Part shown: piece by piece, positions 11,033 through 59,621 of the stretch | Layout of the letters: each line of letters starts with the position of its first letter | How positions within the stretch are numbered: the stretch's first letter is position 1 | DNA from: Raja brachyura | Taxonomy: Eukaryota | Direction: 5' to 3' | Assembly: GCA_963514005.1 (NCBI GenBank) | Contig: OY740794.1 | Coordinates: 38,316,001-38,380,000 of the forward strand | Length of the DNA stretch: 64,000 nt | Translations under genes and position numbers: made by a program | Notes under the pieces: generated by a model | The model's input: the letters and a program-made list of their open reading frames with translations, nothing else | Database searches by the model: none | What the model was told of the DNA's origin: nothing

Positions 11033-11076
11033 TGAGAAAGTGTGAGAAAAATAAACATCAGAATGAGGTATGTTTA

Positions 11077-11248
11077 AGAAGGAACTGCAATTGCTGGATA
11101 ATCGAAGGTAGACAAAAATGCTGGAGAAACTCAGCGGGTGAGGCAGTATCTATGGAGCGAAGGGAATAGACTCGAAACTTTGCCTATTTCCTTCGCTCCA
11201 TAGATGCTGCCTCGCCCCGCTGAGTTTCTCCCGCATTTTTGTCTACCA
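11077..11248. repeat. Fold-back (inverted) pair of the pLTR-type repeat
   Basis: Arms at about 11107-11170 and 11183-11248 are reverse complements. Confidence 0.8.
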
Positions 11249-25100: not shown

Positions 25101-26016
25101 AGACACATGGTTCGTAGCAAAGGAGCCTGTTGGAAGTCACTTCAATTGGATACTTTAACCAAAAAAAGCTCCACATATTATTGCCAAATTCATTACCCAT
25201 TTCTTAAACTATAAGTGTGTTCACCTTACTTAGTTGTGTGCTCCATCTACTCAACTCTTTGTATTACTGGATGCTTCAACACTCTCCTCCTGTATGTTTC
25301 ACCTGTAAAACCCTGTATGGTCAACTGATTATTCTCCCACACATGTTATACATGAAACTTCACAGGACAATGTGGTAATCCAGCATCCTCAGTACAATCT
25401 GGTATCAAACTGCAGAGTTCCCACTTTATTGGATATTTACTCCAGCACACTTTTAATTCACTTTTTTAAATAAACATACGTGTTAAAAATGAAGTATTAA
25501 ATTTCCATAAGTTTAAAGGGAGCAGGAATAGAACTCTAGCAAGTTTAAAGGTCGCACAAGAAACAGGAGCTAATAAGTTTCAGCTTTTCGAAAATCAAAA
25601 CAAGCTGACACGTTCGAGCACCCCAGACCCTGGATCCAGCCACAAAACTACCCTCATGCCCCTGACCCGAGACATTCCACACCCTGAGCAGGACTCCGGC
25701 CACACACCCAGCCTATGCATTAAAAACGACACAGATAACCTCACAAGCATCTGGATGGTACATTATGTAATAGTAATTCCATGGATACTGAAGATTTAAT
25801 ACACAAATGATTGAGGCAGATGCTGAACAAAACCATAGGGGTTTCCAAATAACTGGATAACAGATTTTTGGAGATTTACTGTGCCTGATTCAGTTCAGTG
25901 ATCTGTCTCCAGGCACAGTTGGGTATCTCACCTTCCCCACTTTCTGTCTTATATGAATGTGAAATTTACCCCAGAACTATTTTCTGACCATTTTCCTTCA
26001 CACTCAACATACATTG

Positions 26017-26107
26017 AGAAGGGTCTCGACCCGAAACGTCGCCTATTTCCTTCGCTCCTTAGATGCTGCTTCACCCGCTGAGTTTCTCCAGCTTTTTGTG
26101 TAACCCC
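26017..26107 (+). mobile_element. 91-bp Penelope-pLTR-type insert with a 9-bp flanking direct repeat; hammerhead core 5'-clipped
   Basis: catacattg at 26008-26016 and 26108-26116; agaagggtctcgacccgaaacgtcgcc. Confidence 0.8.
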
Positions 26108-28203
26108 CATACATTGCAGTGGTGAGTGGCTGGACTCTTAAAGGTCTTGGATATTCTATTTTCCTTACTTTTGTTTTCATTCTATAATTTGATTTTGGGA
26201 TAATCAAAAAAAAAATAATGTTTAACTGATGGAATCTCAGTCGATAAATTTCTGCATCCTTCCTGAAGATGCTGATTCCATGTTTTATTCCCCTCACTTC
26301 TCTTGCTCCTGGTGATATACCCAATTTAAAGTGATTTCCCACAGGATGCAGCAGTGTGTCATTTCTCAGTCCTGTGCCCTTGTGTCTCACTCAGTAACAT
26401 ACAACAGTGGACAAGAGTGTGCAACTAAATTGAAAATAGATGTGACTACAGAATAACTTTGAAATATTTGATATTGATGCCAATATTTGTGATTCACGTA
26501 CATTTTGGAAGTTGAAACTGCTTGGTGAAGTCTAAGATGAAAGGTTCCTCCAAGGTAGATAGAAGGACCGAATCAATTTGGTGATGATGTGAAGTTAAGG
26601 TTTATATTTTAATTATATGGACAACAGAAGGTAGTAGAGGAGTCCTCAGTAGCTCTTCTCAATGGAGAGCAAGACTGAAGTGATTATAAGAAGGCACCGT
26701 TTGCAATTGACAAACCAAAACCTGATTCATAATTGAGCTGCTTGATGGCCAATGCAATTTGTAAACTATGCACACTTAGTCCATTGCTGTTATTCAATCA
26801 CACCCCAACAGGTGCCCTTTTGTTTAATTTTTACATGTTAATTATAATTCAAGAAAGTAACATTGAGCCACAGAGTGCTCTTGGCCCATTGAACAGTGAC
26901 ATTTTGATGGTGATCAGAGTACTCGTTCCAATCAGATTTTGGTGTGATTGAATCTGTCATTGTGTTTGCAAATCTTTGGAAGGCGACTAGATCCTTTCAG
27001 AAGAGAACATAAAGCTGCAGGGAAATGTACAGATTTGCATTGTAATGTAAGAAGGAATGAATTCTTAGGCGTGGGATTTCCATTTTGGTTTTCTAACTGA
27101 GAAAGACAGGTCCAAGAGTGAAAGTTGAAATTTACTGGAAGATGCACATTTCCTGAATTAAATCCTGCGCAGCAAAGCAGGAGCTGGAGAGATAGGTGGT
27201 GTGCGATGCCACAAAGATATGCTGCTACAAAAAAAACATTTTTATTACTAAATTAGATTTTTTGAAGGATAATTCAACACATAAACGAGTGGAGCAGAGA
27301 ACATCTCAGGTTTCATGGCCCTTCTGAGGAAAATCAAGTTCTGCCCCAGCTGGTCAATACATGTGTGAAAAAGAATGAACACATTTAGAAAGATGAAACA
27401 GGAGTGGGATCGGTCAATGCAGTGTGCTGTGTGTTCTTTACTCTTAATTCTTCTGAGTGTCTGCTGTGTTTTGTGTCATTTTTATCTTGCGTAAGAAATT
27501 GTGATTTTGTTTGTCAGCTTTAGTGTGGTAAGAGTCTTTCAGCCCACTGTGAATCTAATCTCTAAACTGCTGCAAAGTCCAGAGACTCCTTGAGCTGCCC
27601 AATTATCTTAGAAAGTATGGAGCAGAAATCCACTTATCTGAGCATCTTCATGCACATAGACTTAAGGTGAAATTTTCTCTCCCAATCCTAATCCTTGGCC
27701 CTGCACCTACCTCAGGTAGTCATCCAGGCAATGTTTAAATGAGGGCTCTGCCTCCAACACCCTTCCAGACAGTAAATTTCAGATCCCTAACACTTGAATT
27801 TGTTTTTGTAACTCCCCTAATCCAATTAACAAACCACCCCCTTTGTTTCTAAACTCCCTGCTAAGATTATTTCAGTTCACGCCACCCATGATTTTAAACA
27901 GCAATTAAATTGCCCTCCAGTTACTCTCTTGTTCCAAGAAAATAATCCCAGCCAAGCTTACTCTTCCTGGTCCCATTGTGAAAAAGAATTATTGCACAAT
28001 TGTAGAACTGAACCTCTCACAATCCGCATTTTGAAACATAAAGTGAAGATTGGTTCATATTTTGCATGCCAATTTTGCCACTTAACAAAGCAGCAGCTTT
28101 TTGAACAGTTAATGTTGCAAGCTAGTGACAGAACCAGTTGCAAGATTTGCAATCACGCTTGGGCTCCTTCCATTGCCCTGACTAATGATTATTGTCCTTA
28201 CAG

Positions 28204-29024: not shown

Positions 29025-31591
29025 AGAAACATAGAAACATAGAAATTAGGTGCAGGAATAGGCCATTCGGCCCTTCGAGCCTGCACCGCCATTCAATATG
29101 ATCATGGCTGATCATCCAACTCAGTATCCCGTACCTGCCTTCTCTCCATACCCTCTAATCCCCTTAGCCACAAGGGCCACATCTAACTCCCTCTTAAATA
29201 TATCCAATGAACTGGCCTCAACTACCCTCTGTGGCAGAGAGTTCCAGAAACCCACCACTCTCTGTGTGAAAAAATTCCTTCTCATCTCGGTCCTAAAGGA
29301 TTTCCTCCTTATCCTTAAGCTGTGACCCCTTGTCCTGGACCTCCCCAACATCGGGAACAATCTTCCTGCATCTAGCCTGTCCAACCCCTTAAGAATCTTG
29401 TAAGTTTCTATAAGATCCCCTCTCAATCTCCTAAATTCTAGAGAGTATAAACCGAGTCTATGCAGTCTTTGTTCATAAGACAGTCTGACATCCCAGGAAT
29501 CAGTCTGGTGAACCTTCGCTGCACTCCCTCTATGGCAATAATGTCCTTCCTCAGATTTGGAGACCAGAACTGTACGCAATACTCCAGGTGTGGCCTCACC
29601 AAGACCCTATACAACTGAAGTAGAACCTCCCTGCTCCTATACTCAAATCCTTTTGCTATGAAAGCTAACATACCATTGGCTTTCTTCACTGCCTGCTGTA
29701 CCTGCATGCCTACTTTCAATGACTGGTGTACCATGACACCCAGGTCGCGCTGCATCTCCCCTTTTCCTAATCGGCCACCATTTAGATAGTAGTCGGTTTT
29801 CCTATTTTTGCCACCAAAGTGGATAACCTCACATTTATCCACATTATACTGCATCTGCCAAACATTTGCCCACTCACCCAGCCTATCCAAGTCACCTTGC
29901 ATTCTCCTAGCATCATCCTCACAGCTAACACTGCCACCCAGCTTAGTGTCATCCGCAAACTTGGAGATATTGCCTTCAATTCCCTCATCCAGATCATTTA
30001 TGTATATTGTAAATAGCTGGGGTCCCAGCACTGAGCCTTGCGGTACCCCACTAGTCACTGCCTGCCATTGTGAAAACGACCCGTTAACTCCTACTCTTTG
30101 CTTCCTGTTTGCCAGCCAGTTCTCTATCCACATCAATACTGAACCCCCAATGCCATATGCTTTAAGTTTATATACTAATCGCTTATGTGGGACCTTGTCG
30201 AAAGCCTTCTGGAAGTCCAGATACAGCACATCCACTGGTTCTCCCCCATCCACGCTACTAGTTACATCCTCGAAAAATTCCACAAGATTCGTCAGACATG
30301 ATTTACCTTTCGTAAATCCATGCTGACTTTGTCCAATGATTTCACCACTTTCCAAATGTGCTGCTATCCCATCTTTAATAACTGACTCTAGCAGTTTCCC
30401 CACTACCGATGTTAGACTAACTGGTCTGTAATTCCCCGTTTTCTCTCTCCCCCCCTTCTTAAAAAGAGGGGTTACGTTTGCTACCCGCCAATCCTCAGGA
30501 ACTACTCCAGAATCTAAAGAGTTTTGAAAGATTATCACTAATGCATCCACTATTTCCGGAGCTACTTCCTTAAGTACTCTGGGATGCAGCCTATCTGGCC
30601 CTGGGGATTTATCGGCCTTTAATCCATTCAATTTACCCAACACCACTTCCCGACTGACCTGGATTTCACTCAAGTACTCCTTTGACCTGCGGTCCCCTGC
30701 TATTTCCGGCAGATTATTTATGTCTTCCTTAGTGAAGACGGAACCAAAGTAGTTATTCAATTGGTCCGCCATATCCTTGTTCCCCATGATCAACTCACCT
30801 GTTTCTGACTGCAAGGGACCTACATTTGTTTTAACTAATCTCTTTCTCTTCACATATCTATAAAAACTTTTGCAGTCAGTTTTTATGTTCTCTGCCAGTT
30901 TTCTTTCATAATCTATTTTTCCTTTCCTAATCAAGCCCTTTGTCCTTCTCTGCTGGTCTCTGAATTTCTCCCAGTCCTCTGCTATGCTGCTTTTTCTGGC
31001 TACTTTGTACGCATCATCCTTTGCTTTGATACTATCCCTGATTTCCCTTGTTATCCACGGATGCACTACCTTCCCTGATCTATTCTTTTGCCAAATTGGG
31101 ATGAACAATTTTTGTAGTTCATCCATGCAGTCTTTAAATGTCTTCCATTGCGTATCCACCGTCAACCCTTTTAGAATTGATTGCCAGTCAATCTTGGCCA
31201 ATTCACGTCTCATACCCTCAAAGTTACCTTTCCTTAAGTTCAGAACCATTGTTTCTGAATTAACAATGTCACTCTCCATCCTAATGAAGAACTCGACCAT
31301 ATTATGGTCACTCTTGCCCAAGGGGGCACGCACAATAAGACTGCTAACTAACCCTTCCTCATTACTCAATACCCAGTCTAAAATAGCCTGCTCTCTCGTT
31401 GGTTCCTCTACATGTTGATTTAGATAACTATCCCTCATACTTTCCAAAAAATCCTCTTCCTCAGCGCCCCTGCCAATTTGATTCACCCAATCTATATGTA
31501 GATTGAAGTCACCCATTATAACTGTTTTGCCTTTGTCGCACGCATTTCTAATTTCCTGTTTTATACCATCCCCAACTTCACTACTACTGTT
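29023..31591 (-). mobile_element. CR1-clade LINE, 5'-truncated (~2.6 kb): APE endonuclease C-terminus, RT, 3' UTR and (TTTCTATG)n tail
   Basis: ORF 29438..31612 has GDFN, ILD, SDH, GNYRPVSLTS, YLDFQKAFDKV, GVPQGSVLGP and FADD. One frameshift near 29485 leads into the 29121..29579 frame (C-terminus GYGEKAGTGY). Confidence 0.95.
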
Positions 31592-31592
31592 A

Positions 31593-31680
31593 GGATGATC
31601 AGCCATGATCATATTGAATGGTGGTGCAGGCTCAAAGGGCCGAATAGCCTACTCCTGCACCTATTTTCTATGTTTCTATT
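31593..31680 (+). mobile_element. 3' half of the split CR1 3'-end copy, with tail
   Basis: ggatgatcagccatgatcatattgaatgg...ttttctatgtttcta continues where the 28936-29024 piece stops. Confidence 0.85.
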
Positions 31681-33420: not shown

Positions 33421-34146
33421 GTAAGTAGGGAAGAAACCAATTACCGGTAAGGTCATTATCTAAATTTCATGTAATTCAGCTCATTGATGGGCAAGTTATC
33501 TAGGTGGCTCTGCATATCTAAAGATATAGTCTTTGGATTCCAAAGTCCCAAAAACTCATACATAATGAAGGCAGCTTGCGCTAAAGAGCATATTTAATAC
33601 AAAAAAGCATACCAAGGAACTTTGAAGAACCATCCTCAGACAAAAGTTGGCATCAAAGAAGGGGACATAATGCGAGGTGACTGAAGATGTTAATTGCACA
33701 CTGCTGTCCAGTCTCCTGCCACAGCAAGGACACTTAGCTGCCTCTTCAACTACTCTTGCCAGAAAGATCATATGTCATCAGCATTGGTCATTGGGGCAGT
33801 AATTAATGTTGCAAAACATAGTGGACAACGCCGTTCCCATCATTCAAAAGAACACCCTTCATAAACCACAAATGCACAATCACATTTTTGCAAAGTTGAT
33901 TTGATTTGTTGTCTCAAATTGATATCACAAACATACCTAAAATCATCAGAGACCACACTGCAGATTTTACTTCGGAGTCATGTGAGTGACTACGTGAAGA
34001 CCCCGCCAGCACACATGCGCGACATATCGTCGAACACATTACGAAGCGACAGGCACCAGCATAAGTTTAAAAACGGCCTGCAGGTAAGTACTTACCAGTC
34101 CTGAGGTCGTTTGTCGGCTCTGTATTGTTGTTTTTCAGAGCGCACC

Positions 34147-35385
34147 ATGGAGTCCCGGACAAAGTCCAAAAGAGCAGCTGCCAAAGTTGCTGCTGAGGAC
34201 CGCGAAGGACGCAGCCAGCAGCGGTCGAGTTCTCCTGAGCTGCTGGTTCAATCCGCAGCCCCCGACTTCACGCCGCTACAGCCCGCAGGTGCTCCTCGGA
34301 CTGGCGGCAAAACCACCCAGAAGTCGGGCAGGTCCGCTGACTCGGCTGAGTCCGGACCGGAGGACACCCCACTCGTGGGAAGCGACTGCGGTTGACTGTC
34401 CCGCATGGAGCGGATGGTGGAGCAGTTGCTCCAACGTGACCTACTGCAGCAGGGGTATGGTCACAGTGGGTCTCTTAGCAGATCCACGGCAGCATCCTTT
34501 TCAGGACTGCCAAATGTCTCACCCTCCTTGCAGGGGAGCATTAGGAGTCAGAACTGGGCTGACTCTGAAGAAGGGGGCATGGCTGAAGATACATCCATGC
34601 TAGGGGTGCCTGAAGAGGAGCTATTGGGTATGGTCACAAAATTTGCGATGCCTACCCAAAAAGGGTTGCTGTTACATCCAAAGTTGGCAGCCAGTATCAA
34701 TTACATGGCAACTAACCAACTGCAAGAGCAAGCCATGAATGACACGGCAGCAAAGTACTTAGCTCTGGAGAATTGCGTCTCCCTCAATGTGCCTGTTGTT
34801 AACAAACCCATTTGGGATAACATGAGCCCTGCCATCAGGAGCCAGGAAGTCAAACTCCAGAAGATCCTCAAACTACTGGCTGCTGGGATTACGGCCGTTG
34901 CCAGGACAGTGGATGGAGTTGAAATGCCAGAGGAGCTGCAGGACGCACTATCTCTCCTATGTAACACTCAATATGAGATCAACAGTTACAGGAAGAGCAT
35001 CATCCGGCCTGCACTCAACCCCAAGTTCACGGGGCTGTGCAGACCCAGCAGTGCACAGCCGCCAACATTGCTATTTGGGGACAACCTGCCTAAACAGGTC
35101 AAAGACCTCGATGAAGAGGCAAAGGCAATTGGCATGATTAAGGTGTCAGCTGCCACCAAGTCCCCATACCAGCGGCGGCAGCACCCCTATGCATCCACCA
35201 GCAGACAATGCTACAGCGATAGACCACCTGCTGGTGAAAGCTCGAAGGCCAGTCAACCTGCTCAACGGTCTTTTTTAGACCATGGCCTAGCACGGCCTTC
35301 TTGGAAGATGTGCCAACCCCACACCACAGCGCCTCCACATCACAAGAAACAAGGACAGAGGCAACCAATGCAGCACCGCCGGTAA
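34147..35385 (+). pseudogene. DIRS gag-like ORF1 with one in-frame TGA (34393-34395)
   Basis: ORFs 34111..34395 and 34405..35385 share a frame. LNVPVVNKPIW and LLFGDNL motifs are typical of DIRS ORF1. Confidence 0.75.
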
Positions 35386-35387
35386 AC

Positions 35388-37323
35388 ATGGAGGTAGGTG
35401 GGTCTGGTTGCCTCAGGAACATTGCATGTTTAGACTCCTCACGGGTTGGGGGACAGTTGCACTTGTTTCAGGATGCATGGAGCACTTTAACTACTGATCC
35501 TTTCATACTGGAAAGTATTCAGGGATATAAAATTGAATTTGTTCACAAACTCCCTTCCCCTGTTCAGCATACACCTAGTCGGAAGTTTGTACTTTCACAG
35601 AAAGAAAAGACAGAACATCATGCTGAACTCTTAAGACTAAATTCAAAAGGGGTAATTGAGAAAACCAAAAGAGAGTCTCATGACTGTGTATCGAACATTT
35701 TCATTAAAAATAAAAAAGGACGGCGGATGCCGCATCATTATAGATTTGACTGAACTAAATACTTTCGTGCAGTATGCCCATTTCAAAATGGAAACCTTTG
35801 TCACGGCCAAACAGCTAATTTCCAATAGGTACTTCATGGCTTGCATCGATCTAAAGGATGCATACTATTCAGTACCAATAGACAAGGATCATCACAGATA
35901 TTTGAAATTTGTCTGGATGGGGCAGCTCTGGCAGTACAAAGCACTGCCTAATGGATTATCATCAGCGCCCAGACTGTTTACCAAATTATTAAAACCAGCT
36001 TTAGCGTGTCTCAGGAAACAAAAACATATTGTTATGGCTTACCTCGATGATATTTTAATCGTGGGGAAAACTTTGGAGTTGGCCAAACTGGCCGTCTCAG
36101 CCACCGAGCACCTATTTCAAAAGCTGGGATTTATCATTCATCCAGATAAATCAAAATTGATGCCTTCTACCACACTGGACTATTTGGGTTTCACAATTGA
36201 CTCTGTTCATATGTCTGTCACTTTGCCACCGAACAAAGCGTCAGACTTGATAGAAGCTGCAACAGCCTTACTGGCATCAGGAAACCATCAATTCGGCAAG
36301 TAGCCAGGGTGATTGGGAAGCTTGTGGCTGCTTTCCCAGCCACACAATTTGGCCCACTACATTACCAAAACCTACAAAGGGCAAAAATAGCAACACTCAA
36401 GCACTTTGCGGGCCATTTTGACAGGCCGATGCAATTACCAGGGAAAGCGAAATTGGAATTACAATGGTGGATAGACAATGCTCAACATTGCTCTAACCCC
36501 ATCACAATCACAAATCCCTCGGTTATACTACAACCTGATGCCAGCGCAAAATGTTGGGGAGCAACTAATACCACCTCCAGTTGTGGTGGTAGATGGAGTG
36601 CACATGAATTAACCCTACTTCCAGCACTAGGAATTAATTATCTAGAAATGCTGGGAGCATTTCATGGACTCCGGGCTTACTGTTCGGACATGCACCATCT
36701 GCACGTACGTTTACAGATTGATAATACCACTGTGGTGGCTTATATCAATCATATGGGTGGAATAAAGTCGATATCCTGTGACGAATTGGTCAATACAATC
36801 TGGCACTGGTGCCTAGAAAGGAACATTTGGATATCAGCCACTTACCTTCCAGGTAGGCTAAATACAGTGGCGGACACCAGGTCACGCAGATTTAATGACA
36901 ACACCGAATGGATGTTGGACCGCAAAGTGTTTGCTGACATTGTAGATCGGTATGGAACACCAGATATCGACCTTTTTGCATCCAGACTCAATCACCAAAT
37001 ATCAACATATATTGCATGGGAACCAGACCCCGGGGCAGTAGCGATGGACGCTTTCTCGCTCCACTGGGGGGATTTGTTTTTCTATGCATTTCCCCCCCTT
37101 CTGCCTCATCAGTCGGGTCTTGCAAAAAATTAAACAAGACTCCGCATCGGGTATTCTCGTTGTGCCCGACTGGCCTACTCAACCATGGTTCCCTGTGGTA
37201 CTGGACATGGCCTCAGAACCATGCATCCCAATAAATAAACGGCCGAGTTTATTGGTACACCCTGTGACAGGGGAGAGTCACCCATGCCGTGACCGGATAA
37301 ACCTATTGGTTTGCAGGGTTTGA
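35388..37323 (+). pseudogene. DIRS pol: reverse transcriptase, RNase H and DNA adenine methyltransferase-like domain; three frameshifts
   Basis: VGGQL..W..GYKIEF; KKDGGCRIIIDL; HFKME; IDLKDAYYSVPI; LPNGLSSAPRLFTK; YLDD; DAS..WG, INYLE, DNTT (RNase H); DLFAS, DAF, YAFPPF, PDWPTQPW (MT-like). Shifts near 35712-35717 (A run), about 36260-36300, and 37092-37098 (C run). Confidence 0.9.
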
Positions 37324-37329
37324 AAAGGC

Positions 37330-38283
37330 CACTTCAGGATTATGGACTCTAGGACCGAACAATCAATGTCATCACAGCATCGTGCAGGGAGTCGACCAGA
37401 AGACAGTACCTCACTTACGTGAAGAAATGGGAGGCGTTCTGCACCAAAACGAACACCACATATGACACAGCCACTATCAGGGAAGTGCTGGAGTTCCTGG
37501 CAAGCCTTCATTTCGATGAAGGTTTGAGCTACAGTGCCATCAACTGTGCCAGAAGTGCCCTATCCATTTATCTCGGGCGAAGTTGCGATCACCTTACAGT
37601 GGGGTCTCACCCTTTGGTGTCAAAACTAATGAGGGGAATATTTAATTCAAATCCCCCCAGGCCTAGATATTCCCAGACCTGGGATATCGGCATTGTACTA
37701 ACCATGCTCCGAGGGTGGGCACCAATATCGTCTCTTTCATTGGACAAACTGACCTACAAAATGGTCATGCTGACGGCGCAACGGGTCCAGTCCCTACATA
37801 TGTTAAGTATGGACGCCATGGCAATAACCAACAGCAAGGTAACTTTCTTTATACAGGAGTTACTCAAGCAAGACAGGCCTGGATCATCTGGCCAAAAGTT
37901 GGATTTCCTGGCCTATCCCGTAGACTGCCGTCTATGAATCGTGACCCACATTTTACGCTACATTGAGGTCACCAAGAGTCTCAGGGGCATGGAGAGGGCT
38001 TTGCTTATAAGCCACAAACGCCCTCATCATAGAGTCACCGTGCAAACCATATCAAGATGGTTGAGGGTGGTATTGGGTGCAGCGGGGGTGGACACTAACG
38101 TGTTTAAATCTCACTCCACCAAGGCTGCATCCACATCGGCGGCAAGGATGATGGAAGTTCCAATCGACCACATCCTTGCAACGGCGGGTTGGACAAATGA
38201 AAAAATCTTTCAGCGGTTTTACAATAAACCCCGTGGCCACACCTGAGACGTTTGCTGACAAAATATTAAGTTCTGTTTTATAA
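37330..38283 (+). pseudogene. DIRS tyrosine recombinase (N-terminal core-binding and catalytic domains), disrupted
   Basis: GLSYSAINCARSALS, HPLV..LMRG, PRY..TWD, AQRVQ, HSTK (canonical HSTR), AGW, F.RFY. In-frame TGA at 37935-37937 and probable frameshift near 38230. Start coordinate is approximate. Confidence 0.88.
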
Positions 38284-38447
38284 TTTCTGTGTAGGGGTAT
38301 TATTATTTGGTATTGTGAAATAAATACCTTTTTGTTTTTCAGCACAGTTTCATGTCTGAAATACGTTAACATACTTCCTCCATTTCTCATAATGGCAGTG
38401 TGTGAGCATGGATTAGTTCCAGGGCATGAAATCACAGAGCTTTGAAA

Positions 38448-38557
38448 TCGTCACGTAGTCGCTCACGTGATTCCAAAGTAAAATAGTAAGATTAAATGAG
38501 AACTTACCAGTTTGAAGTTTGATCTTTATTTTATGAGGAGTTACGATGAGGGATTAC
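38448..38557. repeat. DIRS internal complementary region (ICR)
   Basis: 38451-38484 is the reverse complement of the left terminus 33964-33997 (30/34). 38481-38557 is the reverse complement of the right terminus 38695-38771 (75/77). Confidence 0.92.
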
Positions 38558-38661
38558 ATGCCCTCCGCTCCCAAAACTTCTATTATAAAGGTCAACTGGT
38601 TCTCTTATCTTACTATGTTAGTCAACTCTGGTATCTGCGATTTCACACCGCTGCTTTGAAG

Positions 38662-38771
38662 AATGTCACGCATGCGTGCCGTCGGGGTCTTCAAGTAATC
38701 CCTCATCGTTACTCCTCATAAAATAAAGATCAAACTTCAAACTGGTAAGTTCTCAGTTAATCTTACTATTT
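38662..38771. repeat. DIRS right ITR plus 3' extension
   Basis: atgtcacgcatgcgtgccgtcggggtcttca is an imperfect reverse complement of 33995-34025, followed by an extension complementary to the ICR. Confidence 0.88.
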
Positions 38772-41005: not shown

Positions 41006-42271
41006 GTTATTTTTTCAATGTCACATTTTTCATGTTATAGATCGTTTTATTTAAAATCAGAAAATTTAACATATGAGAAGTGTATTTTATAAATAAATAT
41101 GTAGTTGAAGTTGATTTGTTCCCATTGTTGGATTAATCCAACATATCATCTAATCCATTCAAATAACAGGTTTTGCCAATTATAGGTCAATTAAAAATGG
41201 CCTAGTATTTCTAATGTCTGTCCAATTGATACAGGAACATTGTGGTCACATTACTGAGCCAGCACTCAATATGTAGCACCTTGTTCCAGAATCAATTCAT
41301 GTACTTAATTCCCAGCAAGCTTACTTGAAAATTTAAAGTTAAAAAGAAAGCTGTATCACCAATGATGCTATGAAACAACAAGATAGTTTTAAGGAATTAT
41401 TTGGTTCTTTGAAGTCTTTTAGAGAAGGAAATCTCTTTACCCAGTATGTCACATGACTACCAGTATCGTTAACCTACTCCTAAGTGAGCTGGTGATTAGG
41501 GATGGGTAATAAATGCTGCCTTCACCAGTTATGTGTAATTAATTAGCTATGATCTTATGATGGAGTAGGCTTCACAGGCCTGTGGCCAATTTCTGAACAA
41601 TTACACAAAATAATGCATAATGCAATGTTCTCCCCTGCTTGCTTGTTACACCTTCAATTTTTGTTCAGATAAAATAGTTCTCCCAATGTCTTGGTCCCAG
41701 CATACTTATTTGTCACAAAGTCCCTGAGATCCAAATTGTCCTTCCTACAGCCTTGGAGGCAGAAGCACAGGGATGTGGGTAAATTAACACCTCCTTTTAG
41801 AACACCAACGCCTGTGTGAGAGATTACACACTGCTAGACTAGTAGAGTAATTAACAGTACTAATCATACCATTTGTATTGTGCAGTTTGTGGAAACATTT
41901 ATGTATAACACTTTTACCATGGCATAACTTAATATTTTCTCTTTTCCCTTTTCTCATTCACTAACTCACTTCAATCAAAATTTTAAAAATGAGTGATAAA
42001 GTGTGTGTCTGTTGAAGATCTCATAGTCATAGCTCTCTCATTTTACAAGGGTTGTGGAAAACTGATGAAATGTGATGAAATTGACTGAAAGGCTCCCTGT
42101 TCAAAAAAGATCAGCACCATGAAAGGCTTATCAATATTTAGAACCAGGTGTAAAAATAGCTGTTTTAAAAGGAACTGCAGATGCTGGAAAATCGAAGGTA
42201 GACATAGCTGGACCTGCAATGTTCTGCAAGTAGATTAATATACCTGGAACAGTGAGTCCAATATCGTCTAT

Positions 42272-42367
42272 CGTCTGAAGAAGGGTCTCGACCCGAAACG
42301 TCGCCTATCTCCTTCACTCCTTAGATGCTGCTGCACCCGCTGAGTTTCTCCAGCTTTTTGTGTAACC
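42272..42367 (+). mobile_element. 96-bp Penelope-pLTR-type insert with a 9-bp flanking direct repeat
   Basis: atcgtctat at 42263-42271 and 42368-42376. Confidence 0.8.
42273..42305 (+). ncRNA. Minimal type I hammerhead ribozyme motif, core intact, sense to the KIF1A pre-mRNA
   Basis: GT CTGAAGA A GGGTC TC GACCC GAAA C GTC GCC. Confidence 0.7.
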
Positions 42368-44355
42368 ATCGTCTATTTATACACTGACTGGGAGATACAG
42401 TGGGTCATACATTGTCCTCTCATACTCTGGGACTGGTTGGTATAGTTTGTTTGGAACAGCAATGGGGTCCTGAACACAATGTGTGGTTGGAAGGGTGTTT
42501 TTGTTGAGTATACATTATTTTGGTCATATGCTGAGAATTCCAGAATCTTATTTAATGCCTGTGCAAGGTTTTAATCACAAACAGAAAGCCTGATTACTTG
42601 CCCAATACCTGTCAGGTGAGGAAAAGTCTGAAGTTGAAGGCTGTGGAACAGAGAGAAGGGAGACTGGGATAGAATCGTTTGACGACTAGGGTAATATTGT
42701 GTTTGTGGGGGAGGGAGAGAGAGAGAGTGTTGTCAGGGGCATATTGTGGTTGGGGCTGAGATATTGTGGTCTGGGGTGAGATTGACTACCGTGGAGAGGG
42801 AATGCATTCAGGGACCAGCAAGAGATGATGGCTTTTCAGGTGTCGGTGATGGTGAGTGAAGTGCGTAAAACATGCTTCCCCGCGTAATACTTCTGTTTCT
42901 CAAGGCGCCCGAAACAGCAGTATCAAGGCATTTACTTTTCCTTCTGGCCTTTCTCAAGTAATTTTATCTGTAAGAAAAGGGAATCCAGAGTACATTGATC
43001 AAAAATATATAATAATCCATTTAAAAATAAAGTTCATTTTTTATCACCTATCATTTCAGACTTGATTGGTTCTCCACCTCTATTAACACTGGAAGCGAAC
43101 AGATTCACATTGTTTCATATTTTTTAAATGTTTACTTCTCACCAATATTCAATTTGTCTTGTTTGTAAAATTCACAATATCCAACCCTACGATCTATAAT
43201 AGTAGGGAAGTGAAGAGAATTAAATTCTGGAAATTGGAGATGAGCTAGTGACGCTACAGAACTGTTAATTTAATCTGCAGGATCAGCTCGATGGTTCATG
43301 AATTGTATGCCCTACCACATCTGATAAGGATGTGGCTATTAAAAGGGAATAACTGATAATTAGAAAAATAATAAATGCACAGGTAGTATGGTTTGTTTGA
43401 ATGTGTTTGGATGAATATTAATGACCATATGTGAGTAGGAGTGAGTTTGTAACTGGGAGACAGTAGAAGGGTGTGATCCTGAAATTGTGTTTGTATGCAC
43501 ACAAAAATGAATGTGTCACTTGCTACTGAAAGAAATACACAACTTATCATGAAAAGAGCAAATGGTCAAAGTTGTGTTCTGCTTTGTCCATATGGTCATA
43601 GTTTCTGCCGCAGGCATAGAAGGTCACTAAGTACTTGTGGATGGATGCAGCATCCATTACCATACACCCCTCCCAGAAGAGGATGGTTGCTTTGGGGAAA
43701 TAATCTGCCTGGGATAGGTAGGTGTCGGATTGCAATGCAGTGGTGAATTAAAACATTAAAACAGTTGTGAATTAATGCCAAAACGTATCCAAAAAGTAGC
43801 TTCCAGTGCCAAGCAGAACTCCAGGTGCAATTGGTTGATGCAATATTTGTTCTCTCAATCTATCATTGCGAAGACTAGTTTCTGAATAAGGATCCAAAAC
43901 TTTTTTAAAAGTATGTTATAAAGACGGATTGTCTCCCGCTTCACAAATCTGATTGCCGTCCACTACTTTTCTATCTCTTGAAGTGTAGAAATTAACCCCA
44001 GTCCTGACAAAGGGTGATCATCCTCAATTATGTAAGTTTATGTTCTGTGAGCATTAGACCTTTTGATCCCTGGTCTGGTCTCAATATAATATAAAATGTA
44101 AATGTTCCATCTAATTCTAGGTTGGAAAGTAATTCTTGGTGTAGTGCTGGAGAAAAAGACACAAACAAATGCAGTGTTTTGGCTTAGTAATTTGGCTGAA
44201 ATTATAATTCTAAAGGGGTAGAAATAAGAAATTATATGTAAAATGAATATTAGTGACCTTCTATCCCCTAGAACATAGCTTTGCTGTCTCATTGTGCTCA
44301 GGGTCTGCTGCTTTGCTTTACAATGTTACCGTTACCAATGATACTTTTTTGAGTC

Positions 44356-45004: not shown

Positions 45005-45217
45005 GGAAGGAACTGCAGATGCTGGTTTAAACCGAAGATAGACACAAAATGCTGGATTAACTCAGTGGGGCTGCCAGCATCTCTGGATAGAAGGAATGAG
45101 TGACGTTTCGGGTCGAGACCCTACTTCAGAATCGGTCCCGACCTGAAACGTCACCCATTCCTTCTATCCAGAGATGTTGCCAGTCCCCCTGAGTTACTCC
45201 GACATTTTGTGTTTATC
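45005..45217. repeat. Fold-back pair of the pLTR-type repeat with hammerhead-like cores at the centre
   Basis: Arms at about 45037-45118 and 45134-45217; the minus-strand core reads CTGAAGT (mutated). Confidence 0.8.
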
Positions 45218-59081: not shown

Positions 59082-59164
59082 GTAGGAATCTGCACTGCCA
59101 GCAACCTACAGCTGGTCTCAGGTGCCCCTACCTCTCAGAGTAAAATACATATTATGATGTGTTA

Positions 59165-59290
59165 AAGAAGGAACTGCAGATGCTGGAGATTCGAGGGTTA
59201 CACAAAAAGCTGGAGAAACTCAGCGGGTGCAGCAGCATCTGAGGAGCGAAGGAGATAGGCGACGTTTCGGGTCGAGACCCTTCTTCAGAC
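59165..59290 (-). mobile_element. 126-bp Penelope-pLTR-type insert with an 18-bp flanking direct repeat
   Basis: acatattatgatgtgtta at 59147-59164 and 59291-59308. Confidence 0.85.
59258..59290 (-). ncRNA. Minimal type I hammerhead ribozyme motif, core intact
   Basis: Minus strand: GT CTGAAGA A GGGTC TC GACCC GAAA C GTC GCC. Confidence 0.7.
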
Positions 59291-59621
59291 ACATATTATG
59301 ATGTGTTATGTGCATGGGGGAAGAGAGCTCGCATAACAGTTTTGGATTGGATTTTTCAATATTGCTATCTTTTTGGAGAAAGAAGACTGATAATGAGAAT
59401 GTGGGATTGTATTTTTGGGGTACTAATACCATTTATTAGAATTATAAATACTCACATTTAAAGGACCAGTTGAAGATGGAGTAGGTTCTACCTGACTGAC
59501 AGACCAGTTTAGGGGAAAATCACTGCAGGTCAGAAGGTACAATGAAAGATTATTTTCTATTAATTGATAAATTCACCAGATACTTTTTCACCCCAGGTGT
59601 GATGGATCCCTCATATCATCC

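Follow-up and report, generated by a model that had tools for sequence, protein, structure and literature searches.

The 64-kb stretch of DNA analysed here (the window) carries three short inserts, about 97% identical to one another and each flanked by direct repeats, and the question that it raises is what such inserts are: members of a small ribozyme-carrying retroelement family of their own, as proposed in a reading made from the sequence alone, or products of a larger element. They represent the terminal repeat of a Penelope-like element (PLE) flanked by target-site duplications, and we consider it likely that they arose as run-off cDNAs copied from two internal starts of the reverse transcriptase (RT) to the probably capped 5' end of uncut RNA.

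The repeats, 9, 9, and 18 bp long, are exact and lie flush with the inserts just where the sequence-only reading placed them, with CATACATTG on both sides of the 26017 insert, ATCGTCTAT on both sides of the 42272 insert, and an 18-mer on both sides of the 59165 insert (Table 1). Positions within the unit are numbered from the G of GTCTGAAG, taken as +1, the preceding A being 0. The inserts had also been said to begin at or just inside a hammerhead motif, which is the case for two of them, at +1, while the 26017 insert begins at +7, without CUGA, and thus contains no complete hammerhead. The first six bases of the duplication adjoining the 59165-59290 insert also match the tail at +127 to +132. 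Older relatives of the unit, at 70-85% identity, are found in the window as well, several of them back to back, and the tail end of one older related PLE copy lies at 42161-42204 (minus strand), 70 bases upstream of the 42272 insert and in the opposite orientation. The window comprises other elements, too. Broken ORFs resembling gag, RT, RNase H, and tyrosine recombinase occupy 34088-37937 (plus strand), a set that we take to be that of DIRS-type retroelements; organism E (run X13) joins 33963 to 38768, so this block is missing there. A 736-codon frame at 29438-31648 (minus strand) codes for a LINE-type RT, presumably CR1-like by its motifs.

Table 1. Inserts, flanking repeats, and related features of the 64-kb window
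Feature	Position	Strand	Remarks
Older diverged back-to-back pair, related PLE ends	11076-11245		one arm tailed, the other not; 82-84% identity to unit
Target-site duplication, left copy, 9 bp	26008-26016		right copy 26108-26116
Tail-less mini-insert	26017-26107	+	+7 to +96/97; missing in organisms C, D, and E, present in B
Direct repeat, left copy, 9 bp, probable target-site duplication	42263-42271		right copy 42368-42376
Tail-less mini-insert	42272-42367	+	42273-42367 = +1 to +95; one extra 5' base
Older diverged back-to-back pair, related PLE ends	45006-45212		76-80% identity to unit
Target-site duplication, left copy, 18 bp	59147-59164		single copy at empty site
Tailed mini-insert	59165-59290	-	+1 to +126 of element; missing in organism D
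Optional PLE tail, from +97	59165-59194	-	segment between the two 3' end classes
Minimal hammerhead core	59261-59288	-	+3 to +30; predicted cut after 59261
Target-site duplication, right copy, 18 bp	59291-59308		exact repeat; single copy at empty site

The inserts are recent, and the flanking repeats of the 59165 and 26017 inserts are duplications made by insertion. One contig of organism D (run X10) joins 59146 to 59291, skipping 59147-59290 (126 + 18 bases), and is thus devoid of the insert together with one copy of the repeat, while in organisms A, B, and C the runs enter the 59165-59290 insert from both sides. At the 26017 site, organisms C, D, and E (three of four runs) join 26007 to 26108, skipping 26008-26107 (91 + 9 bases), and the insert is present in organism B, the remaining one of the four. 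At the 42272 site, the contigs of the relatives break in the adjoining older repeat. Orthologous sites with one repeat copy, not both, at two of the three inserts bear out the proposal that the repeats stem from target-primed insertion. As to the search for duplications, a looser version of the finder was positive at 3 of 120 random boundary pairs. Since related organisms differ in whether a stub is present, the stubs can serve as phylogenetic markers.

An autonomous PLE is the source of the unit, which forms its terminal repeat and bears the hammerhead. There are 45,955 exact matches to a 29-base piece of it in the 2.7-Gb genome, and many genomic copies run upstream into an ORF. An open frame of 1,137 codons at locus L091 shows an RT followed by a GIY-YIG domain, in which YIDD and GIY-YIG-type motifs are visible (Pfam RVT_1, E=2e-4, and GIY-YIG, E=1.5e-3, both below the curated cut-offs); the suggestion that a Penelope RT/GIY-YIG enzyme was the source agrees with a parent ORF carrying both domains at this level of matching. 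The C-X4-C-X2-C linker ahead of the GIY-YIG domain is a mark of Neptune/Nematis, for which a CX2-5CxxC linker between the RT and the endonuclease is the criterion (PMC8557442). Other marks of EN+ PLEs are present as well: pseudo-LTRs at both ends, an optional tail, inverted 5' copies, and target-site duplications. In L093, a full-length copy, the unit is found at either end.

The ribozyme itself was described as a minimal type I hammerhead. Its layout is there in two inserts, the 26017 copy being without the core. Read against the features given in PMC4209133, the core at 59261-59288 consists of CUGAAGA, an extra A, helix II, and GAAA-C-GUC. Both this core and that at 42275-42302 have CUGANGA, GAAA, the NUH site, the extra base after A9, the G10.1-C11.1 pair, and a palindromic helix III. 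Helix I, by inspection, has two pairs only (U-G and G-C) rather than 4-5 bp, and an Rfam scan of the motif matched no hammerhead family. Helix II is highly uniform in the copies sampled for covariation. An AAA insertion exactly at the predicted cut occurs in four long copies with different flanks (L366, L367, L368, and L372, in C3, C18, C18, and C1334, respectively) and in none at the control position; it may reflect a jump to the A-tailed end of a cut RNA or descent from one variant source. Runs of A before +31 are not enriched (5, versus 3 and 1 at controls). In L326 (C3:35127648-35130677) a start at +31 is preceded by a run of 12 A with AATAAA upstream, and L324 and L328 have a +31 start, an A-run, and element ORF sequence upstream; these three look like template jumps onto A-tailed RNA. 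Cleavage by the predicted ribozyme in vivo is only weakly indicated by such sequences.

The ends of the copies were counted in an anchor-only sample comprising loci for 92 of the first 100 matches listed, drawn from the first 3.4 Mb of one contig, from which five duplicated arms were dropped to give 87 arms. The 3' ends, which the three inserts had suggested to be variable, form two classes at about +96 and +131: among the matches listed, 54 of the 87 arms end at +90 to +101, 29 at +128 to +137, and 4 elsewhere, and loci picked by their ORF split in the same way (15/30 and 10/30, with 5/30 others). What separates the classes, a segment of 35 bases, is the known PLE tail; two internal RT start sites bracket this tail in the anole element in vitro (PMC11167929). 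Of 114 single short arms, 59 lie between exact duplications, 9-20 bases long with a mode of 12-13, and no exact duplication of at least 9 bases was found at the other 55. Target-site logos, meant to show whether singles had been cut in the way of doubles, are AT-rich, with no clear motif. L113, L142, L200, L243, L246, and L255 are independent stubs at nearly one position in another repeat family, which suggests a target hotspot.

The 5' ends are concentrated at the first bases of the ribozyme motif. Among the matches listed in the same anchor-only sample, 42 of the 87 arms start at -2 to +3 and 51 within the wider range of -5 to +10, with 7 at +11 to +61 and 29 upstream of -10; none starts at the ribozyme cut (+28 to +33). 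Genome-wide, there are 35,267 exact matches to +3 to +33 versus 9,622 to -5 to +33. Starts at 0/+1 give 11,497 matches versus 148 at the predicted cut, +31, these patterns differing in their capture rate, and the control position +38 gives 100; real ends made up 26 of 30 sampled starts at +31 and 22 of 30 at +38. Since starts at +31 barely exceed the control and none of the 87 arms begins at the cut, the template was almost always uncut, as the earlier reading had supposed (its dimeric alternative aside). Uncut RNA is also the main substrate of the anole element in vitro (PMC11167929).

These ends bear on the proposal of a separate non-autonomous family mobilised in trans, which is not supported, the unit being the terminal repeat of an autonomous element. 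In its fullest form, an independent retrozyme-like family would supply monomers from circular or multimeric RNA to the Penelope enzyme; this is largely refuted and we regard it as very improbable. The excess of short over long units, about 2:1 (58 versus 29 of 87 arms among the matches listed), is what such a family would give, animal retrozymes are reported to be pLTR-derived and often monomeric (bioRxiv 10.64898/2026.07.22.740005), and some tandem arrays exist, namely a three-unit head-to-tail array with a period of about 190 bases (L378-L380) and a short one starting at +31 (L317-L319). However, long and short copies have the two 3' ends in common, and 190 short and 37 long arms cannot be told apart by any variant, bar one CpG site biased by locus selection. 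The leader beyond the tail has 748 exact matches (30-base piece) versus 45,955 for the unit, about 1.6%; without lineage-specific variants and without the downstream leader, an independent family is unsupported. Moreover, the cut site is not the unit boundary, as the counts at +31, +38, and 0/+1 indicate, rolling-circle copying would not break off at a single point 30 bases ahead of the cut, and the core is missing in one of the three window copies. Non-LTR retrozymes consist of tandem units, each with a full ribozyme (bioRxiv 10.64898/2026.07.22.740005); here the window copies are single, and a tandem or continuing context was seen at 1 of 30 loci in each of four classes. The sequence-only reading had named, as speaking against it, copies that are mostly broken ends of long Penelope elements with no recurrent boundary: the copies are indeed ends of a long Penelope element, while their boundaries are strongly recurrent.

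The base preceding the 5' boundary is unusually often G. Among genome-wide exact matches, G precedes A(0) 2,356 times versus 2,108 for A and T together, and precedes G(+1) 4,033 times versus 3,000 for C and T, an excess in both cases about threefold over the background G of 0.209 (15 sampled stretches). No such excess is seen at the control start +38 (34 G versus 66 A, counted by eye). Among singles bearing duplications, the junction contains non-target bases in 13 of 16 of the G(+1) class versus 6 of 16 of the C/T class (p=0.03). RTs add C opposite a cap, which would appear as such a G; terminal C addition without a cap is another possible source. Inverted junctions account for 14 of 30 G-A(0) loci and 8 of 30 G-G(+1) loci, and there the G may come from the other arm, which offers an alternative source of the excess. 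Some extra junction bases re-copy +5 to +12. The sequence CCAGTCT presumably fits the initiator consensus, with A(0) as the start. A downstream promoter element spaced to suit a start at A(0) was considered and rejected, as the match is partial only and coincides with conserved bases of the ribozyme. The Penelope of D. virilis has an internal initiator-type promoter in its pseudo-LTR (PMC2377424); the start is followed after 46 bases by an intron that runs up to ribozyme helix I (PMC2377424, PMC4209133). Since D. virilis transcription begins well ahead of the ribozyme, starting at the motif is not a general rule.

The 5' peak could also mark not an RNA end but a stall or a microhomology hotspot in ordinary 5'-truncated copies, with the palindrome around +2, a splice-acceptor-like CAG, or a bound protein as candidates, an explanation that we find unlikely. 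Severe 5' truncation is typical of PLEs (PMC8557442), and the short palindrome leaves the 5' ends ambiguous by 2-3 bases; since 1,449 perfect fold-back junctions genome-wide are centred on it, the peak may owe some of its sharpness to microhomology. A pyrimidine tract upstream, with CAG at its end, looks like a 3' splice site, which recalls the D. virilis intron ending at helix I (PMC4209133). Nevertheless, no significant structure is predicted at the boundary, the leader and the upstream repeat region folding no better than shuffles (z -0.03 and 0.28), and no fixed spliced upstream exon is joined there, with 1 of 30 loci in each of four classes continuing into the element. Direct, non-inverted stubs halt at the same point with an added G, and the sole intact full-length copy examined, L093, also starts at -5.

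The pairing of arms in back-to-back doubles follows a nearly strict rule. Among 43 head-to-head pairs, 41 comprise one short and one tailed arm, and 37 of the 43 have a duplication; with duplicated composites removed, about 39 independent events are left, 37 of them short plus tailed. One back-to-back pair with a common flank recurs at L154, L162, L168, L176, L177, and L215, and was thus duplicated within a larger unit. A new set of perfect fold-backs (35 rows minus three duplicates and five previously seen loci) gave 15 short-plus-tailed pairs out of 15 scorable ones (27 examined, 12 unscorable), and tolerant rescoring added four further short-plus-tailed pairs, with eight still unscorable. 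Minor variants are common to both arms 31 times versus 3.0 in shuffles, so both arms come from one source. These common variants, together with the palindromic junctions, fit one arm having been copied from the other, as would happen if singles were run-off cDNAs and doubles arose by snap-back self-priming of one cDNA or from an antisense template, a model published for rotifer elements (PMC3846280). We nonetheless deem self-priming extremely unlikely here. The 5' reach in 59 pairs is longer in the short arm in 19, longer in the tailed arm in 5, and equal in 35, and among the matches listed the anchor-only pairs show 9 with a longer short arm and none with a longer tailed one (n=18). With extra 5' sequence in the short arm and the tail in the other, neither arm contains the other in 19 of the 59 pairs; moreover, the short arm has the same +96 end as the single inserts. 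Later central deletion of palindromes could mimic unequal arms or contribute to them. For the doubles, two primings on opposite strands are favoured over self-priming.

On the preferred reading, that of run-off cDNAs from two internal starts, the GIY-YIG nuclease would make staggered cuts about 9-20 bases apart, and each cut strand could prime synthesis, one at +131 and the other at +96, on the same RNA or on RNAs of one source. Priming by both strands would result in doubles keeping both cDNAs and singles keeping one. Transcription would begin near A(0), the base adjoining the ribozyme motif on its 5' side, and cDNA that had reached the 5' end of the RNA would be attached to the target, in many cases together with an extra G. 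Longer copies would be formed by an enzyme that jumps to, or starts in, the downstream repeat, and the stubs, having no leader beyond the tail, would not spread alone. Leader-carrying copies may bear the trace of a further step: 24 of 29 mapped loci (L373-L402) stop at +181 to +280, and the leader is followed by a new unit from near 0 in 12 and by upstream-repeat sequence in 8 (eye count, n=29). The enzyme may thus jump back to a region shortly after the tail, the part of the RNA that the anole protein requires for binding. A more far-reaching version has all insertions as two-primer events (+131 and +96) on one uncut capped RNA starting at the first base of the ribozyme, the 5' copy of which is almost without helix I, and an enzyme tethered downstream of the tail that jumps back to +180 to +280, building partial tandems; we advance it tentatively, as somewhat short of probable. 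If true, it explains the tail, inversion, and tandem together, and the stubs, tens of thousands of them, constitute a genomic record of Penelope strong-stop intermediates.

Retroviral strong-stop DNA is likewise copied from a start within the RNA up to its 5' end, and in L1 twin priming two primers from the two cut strands lead to inversion. The present inserts differ from both in the direct integration of the short cDNA, in having two fixed starts, and in that the two arms are usually repeats of one sequence. The origin of inverted and tandem PLE structures is disputed, and the fixed ends hint at the route of insertion; the post-priming steps of Penelope transposition are stated to be unvalidated in PMC11167929. 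Precise predictions for RNA 5' ends and for an in vitro assay follow from the constant 5' boundary, the excess of G, and the almost invariable pairing of short and tailed arms. The inserts are best seen as by-products, the shortest insertion products of a known retrotransposon class, ordinary in kind and a moderately useful record of mechanism. The PLE tail, inverted copies, truncation, and dispersed minimal hammerheads are already in print, while the fixed 5' boundary with an added G and the short-plus-tailed rule were not found in a literature search that covered few subscription journals.

Among known systems, the parent element recalls the EN+ PLEs of the Neptune/Nematis type (PMC8557442), being alike in the single RT-GIY-YIG ORF, the linker, the hammerhead pseudo-LTR, 5' truncation, the inverted 5' copy, partial tandems, and a tail of 30-40 bp on one end. 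The difference is that about two-thirds of the arms here are shorter than 135 bases, with a common 5' boundary at the first bases of the ribozyme, a peak that the accessible parts of PMC8557442 do not describe. With the metazoan PLE minimal hammerheads (PMC4209133) the motif has in common the extra base between positions 9 and 10.1, the G10.1-C11.1 pair, the palindromic C-G helix III, and the occurrence of many dispersed single copies. Its helix I of 2 bp is as in D. virilis, whereas the Schistosoma consensus has 4-5 bp, and the ends of the copies do not fit the circular-RNA model proposed in the same source. Non-LTR retrozymes (bioRxiv 10.64898/2026.07.22.740005) are likewise short, non-coding, and pLTR-derived, with a type I hammerhead, whereas the units here are single or back-to-back stubs without a lineage of their own. 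Poseidon PAc of Anolis carolinensis (PMC11167929) is alike in the two RT starts bracketing the tail, the uncut RNA template, the cutting and extension of both strands, and AT-rich targets, but it belongs to another clade and its ORF begins inside the ribozyme. In vitro, the PAc start sites show no difference between the strands (PMC11167929), whereas the doubles described here almost always pair one start with the other.
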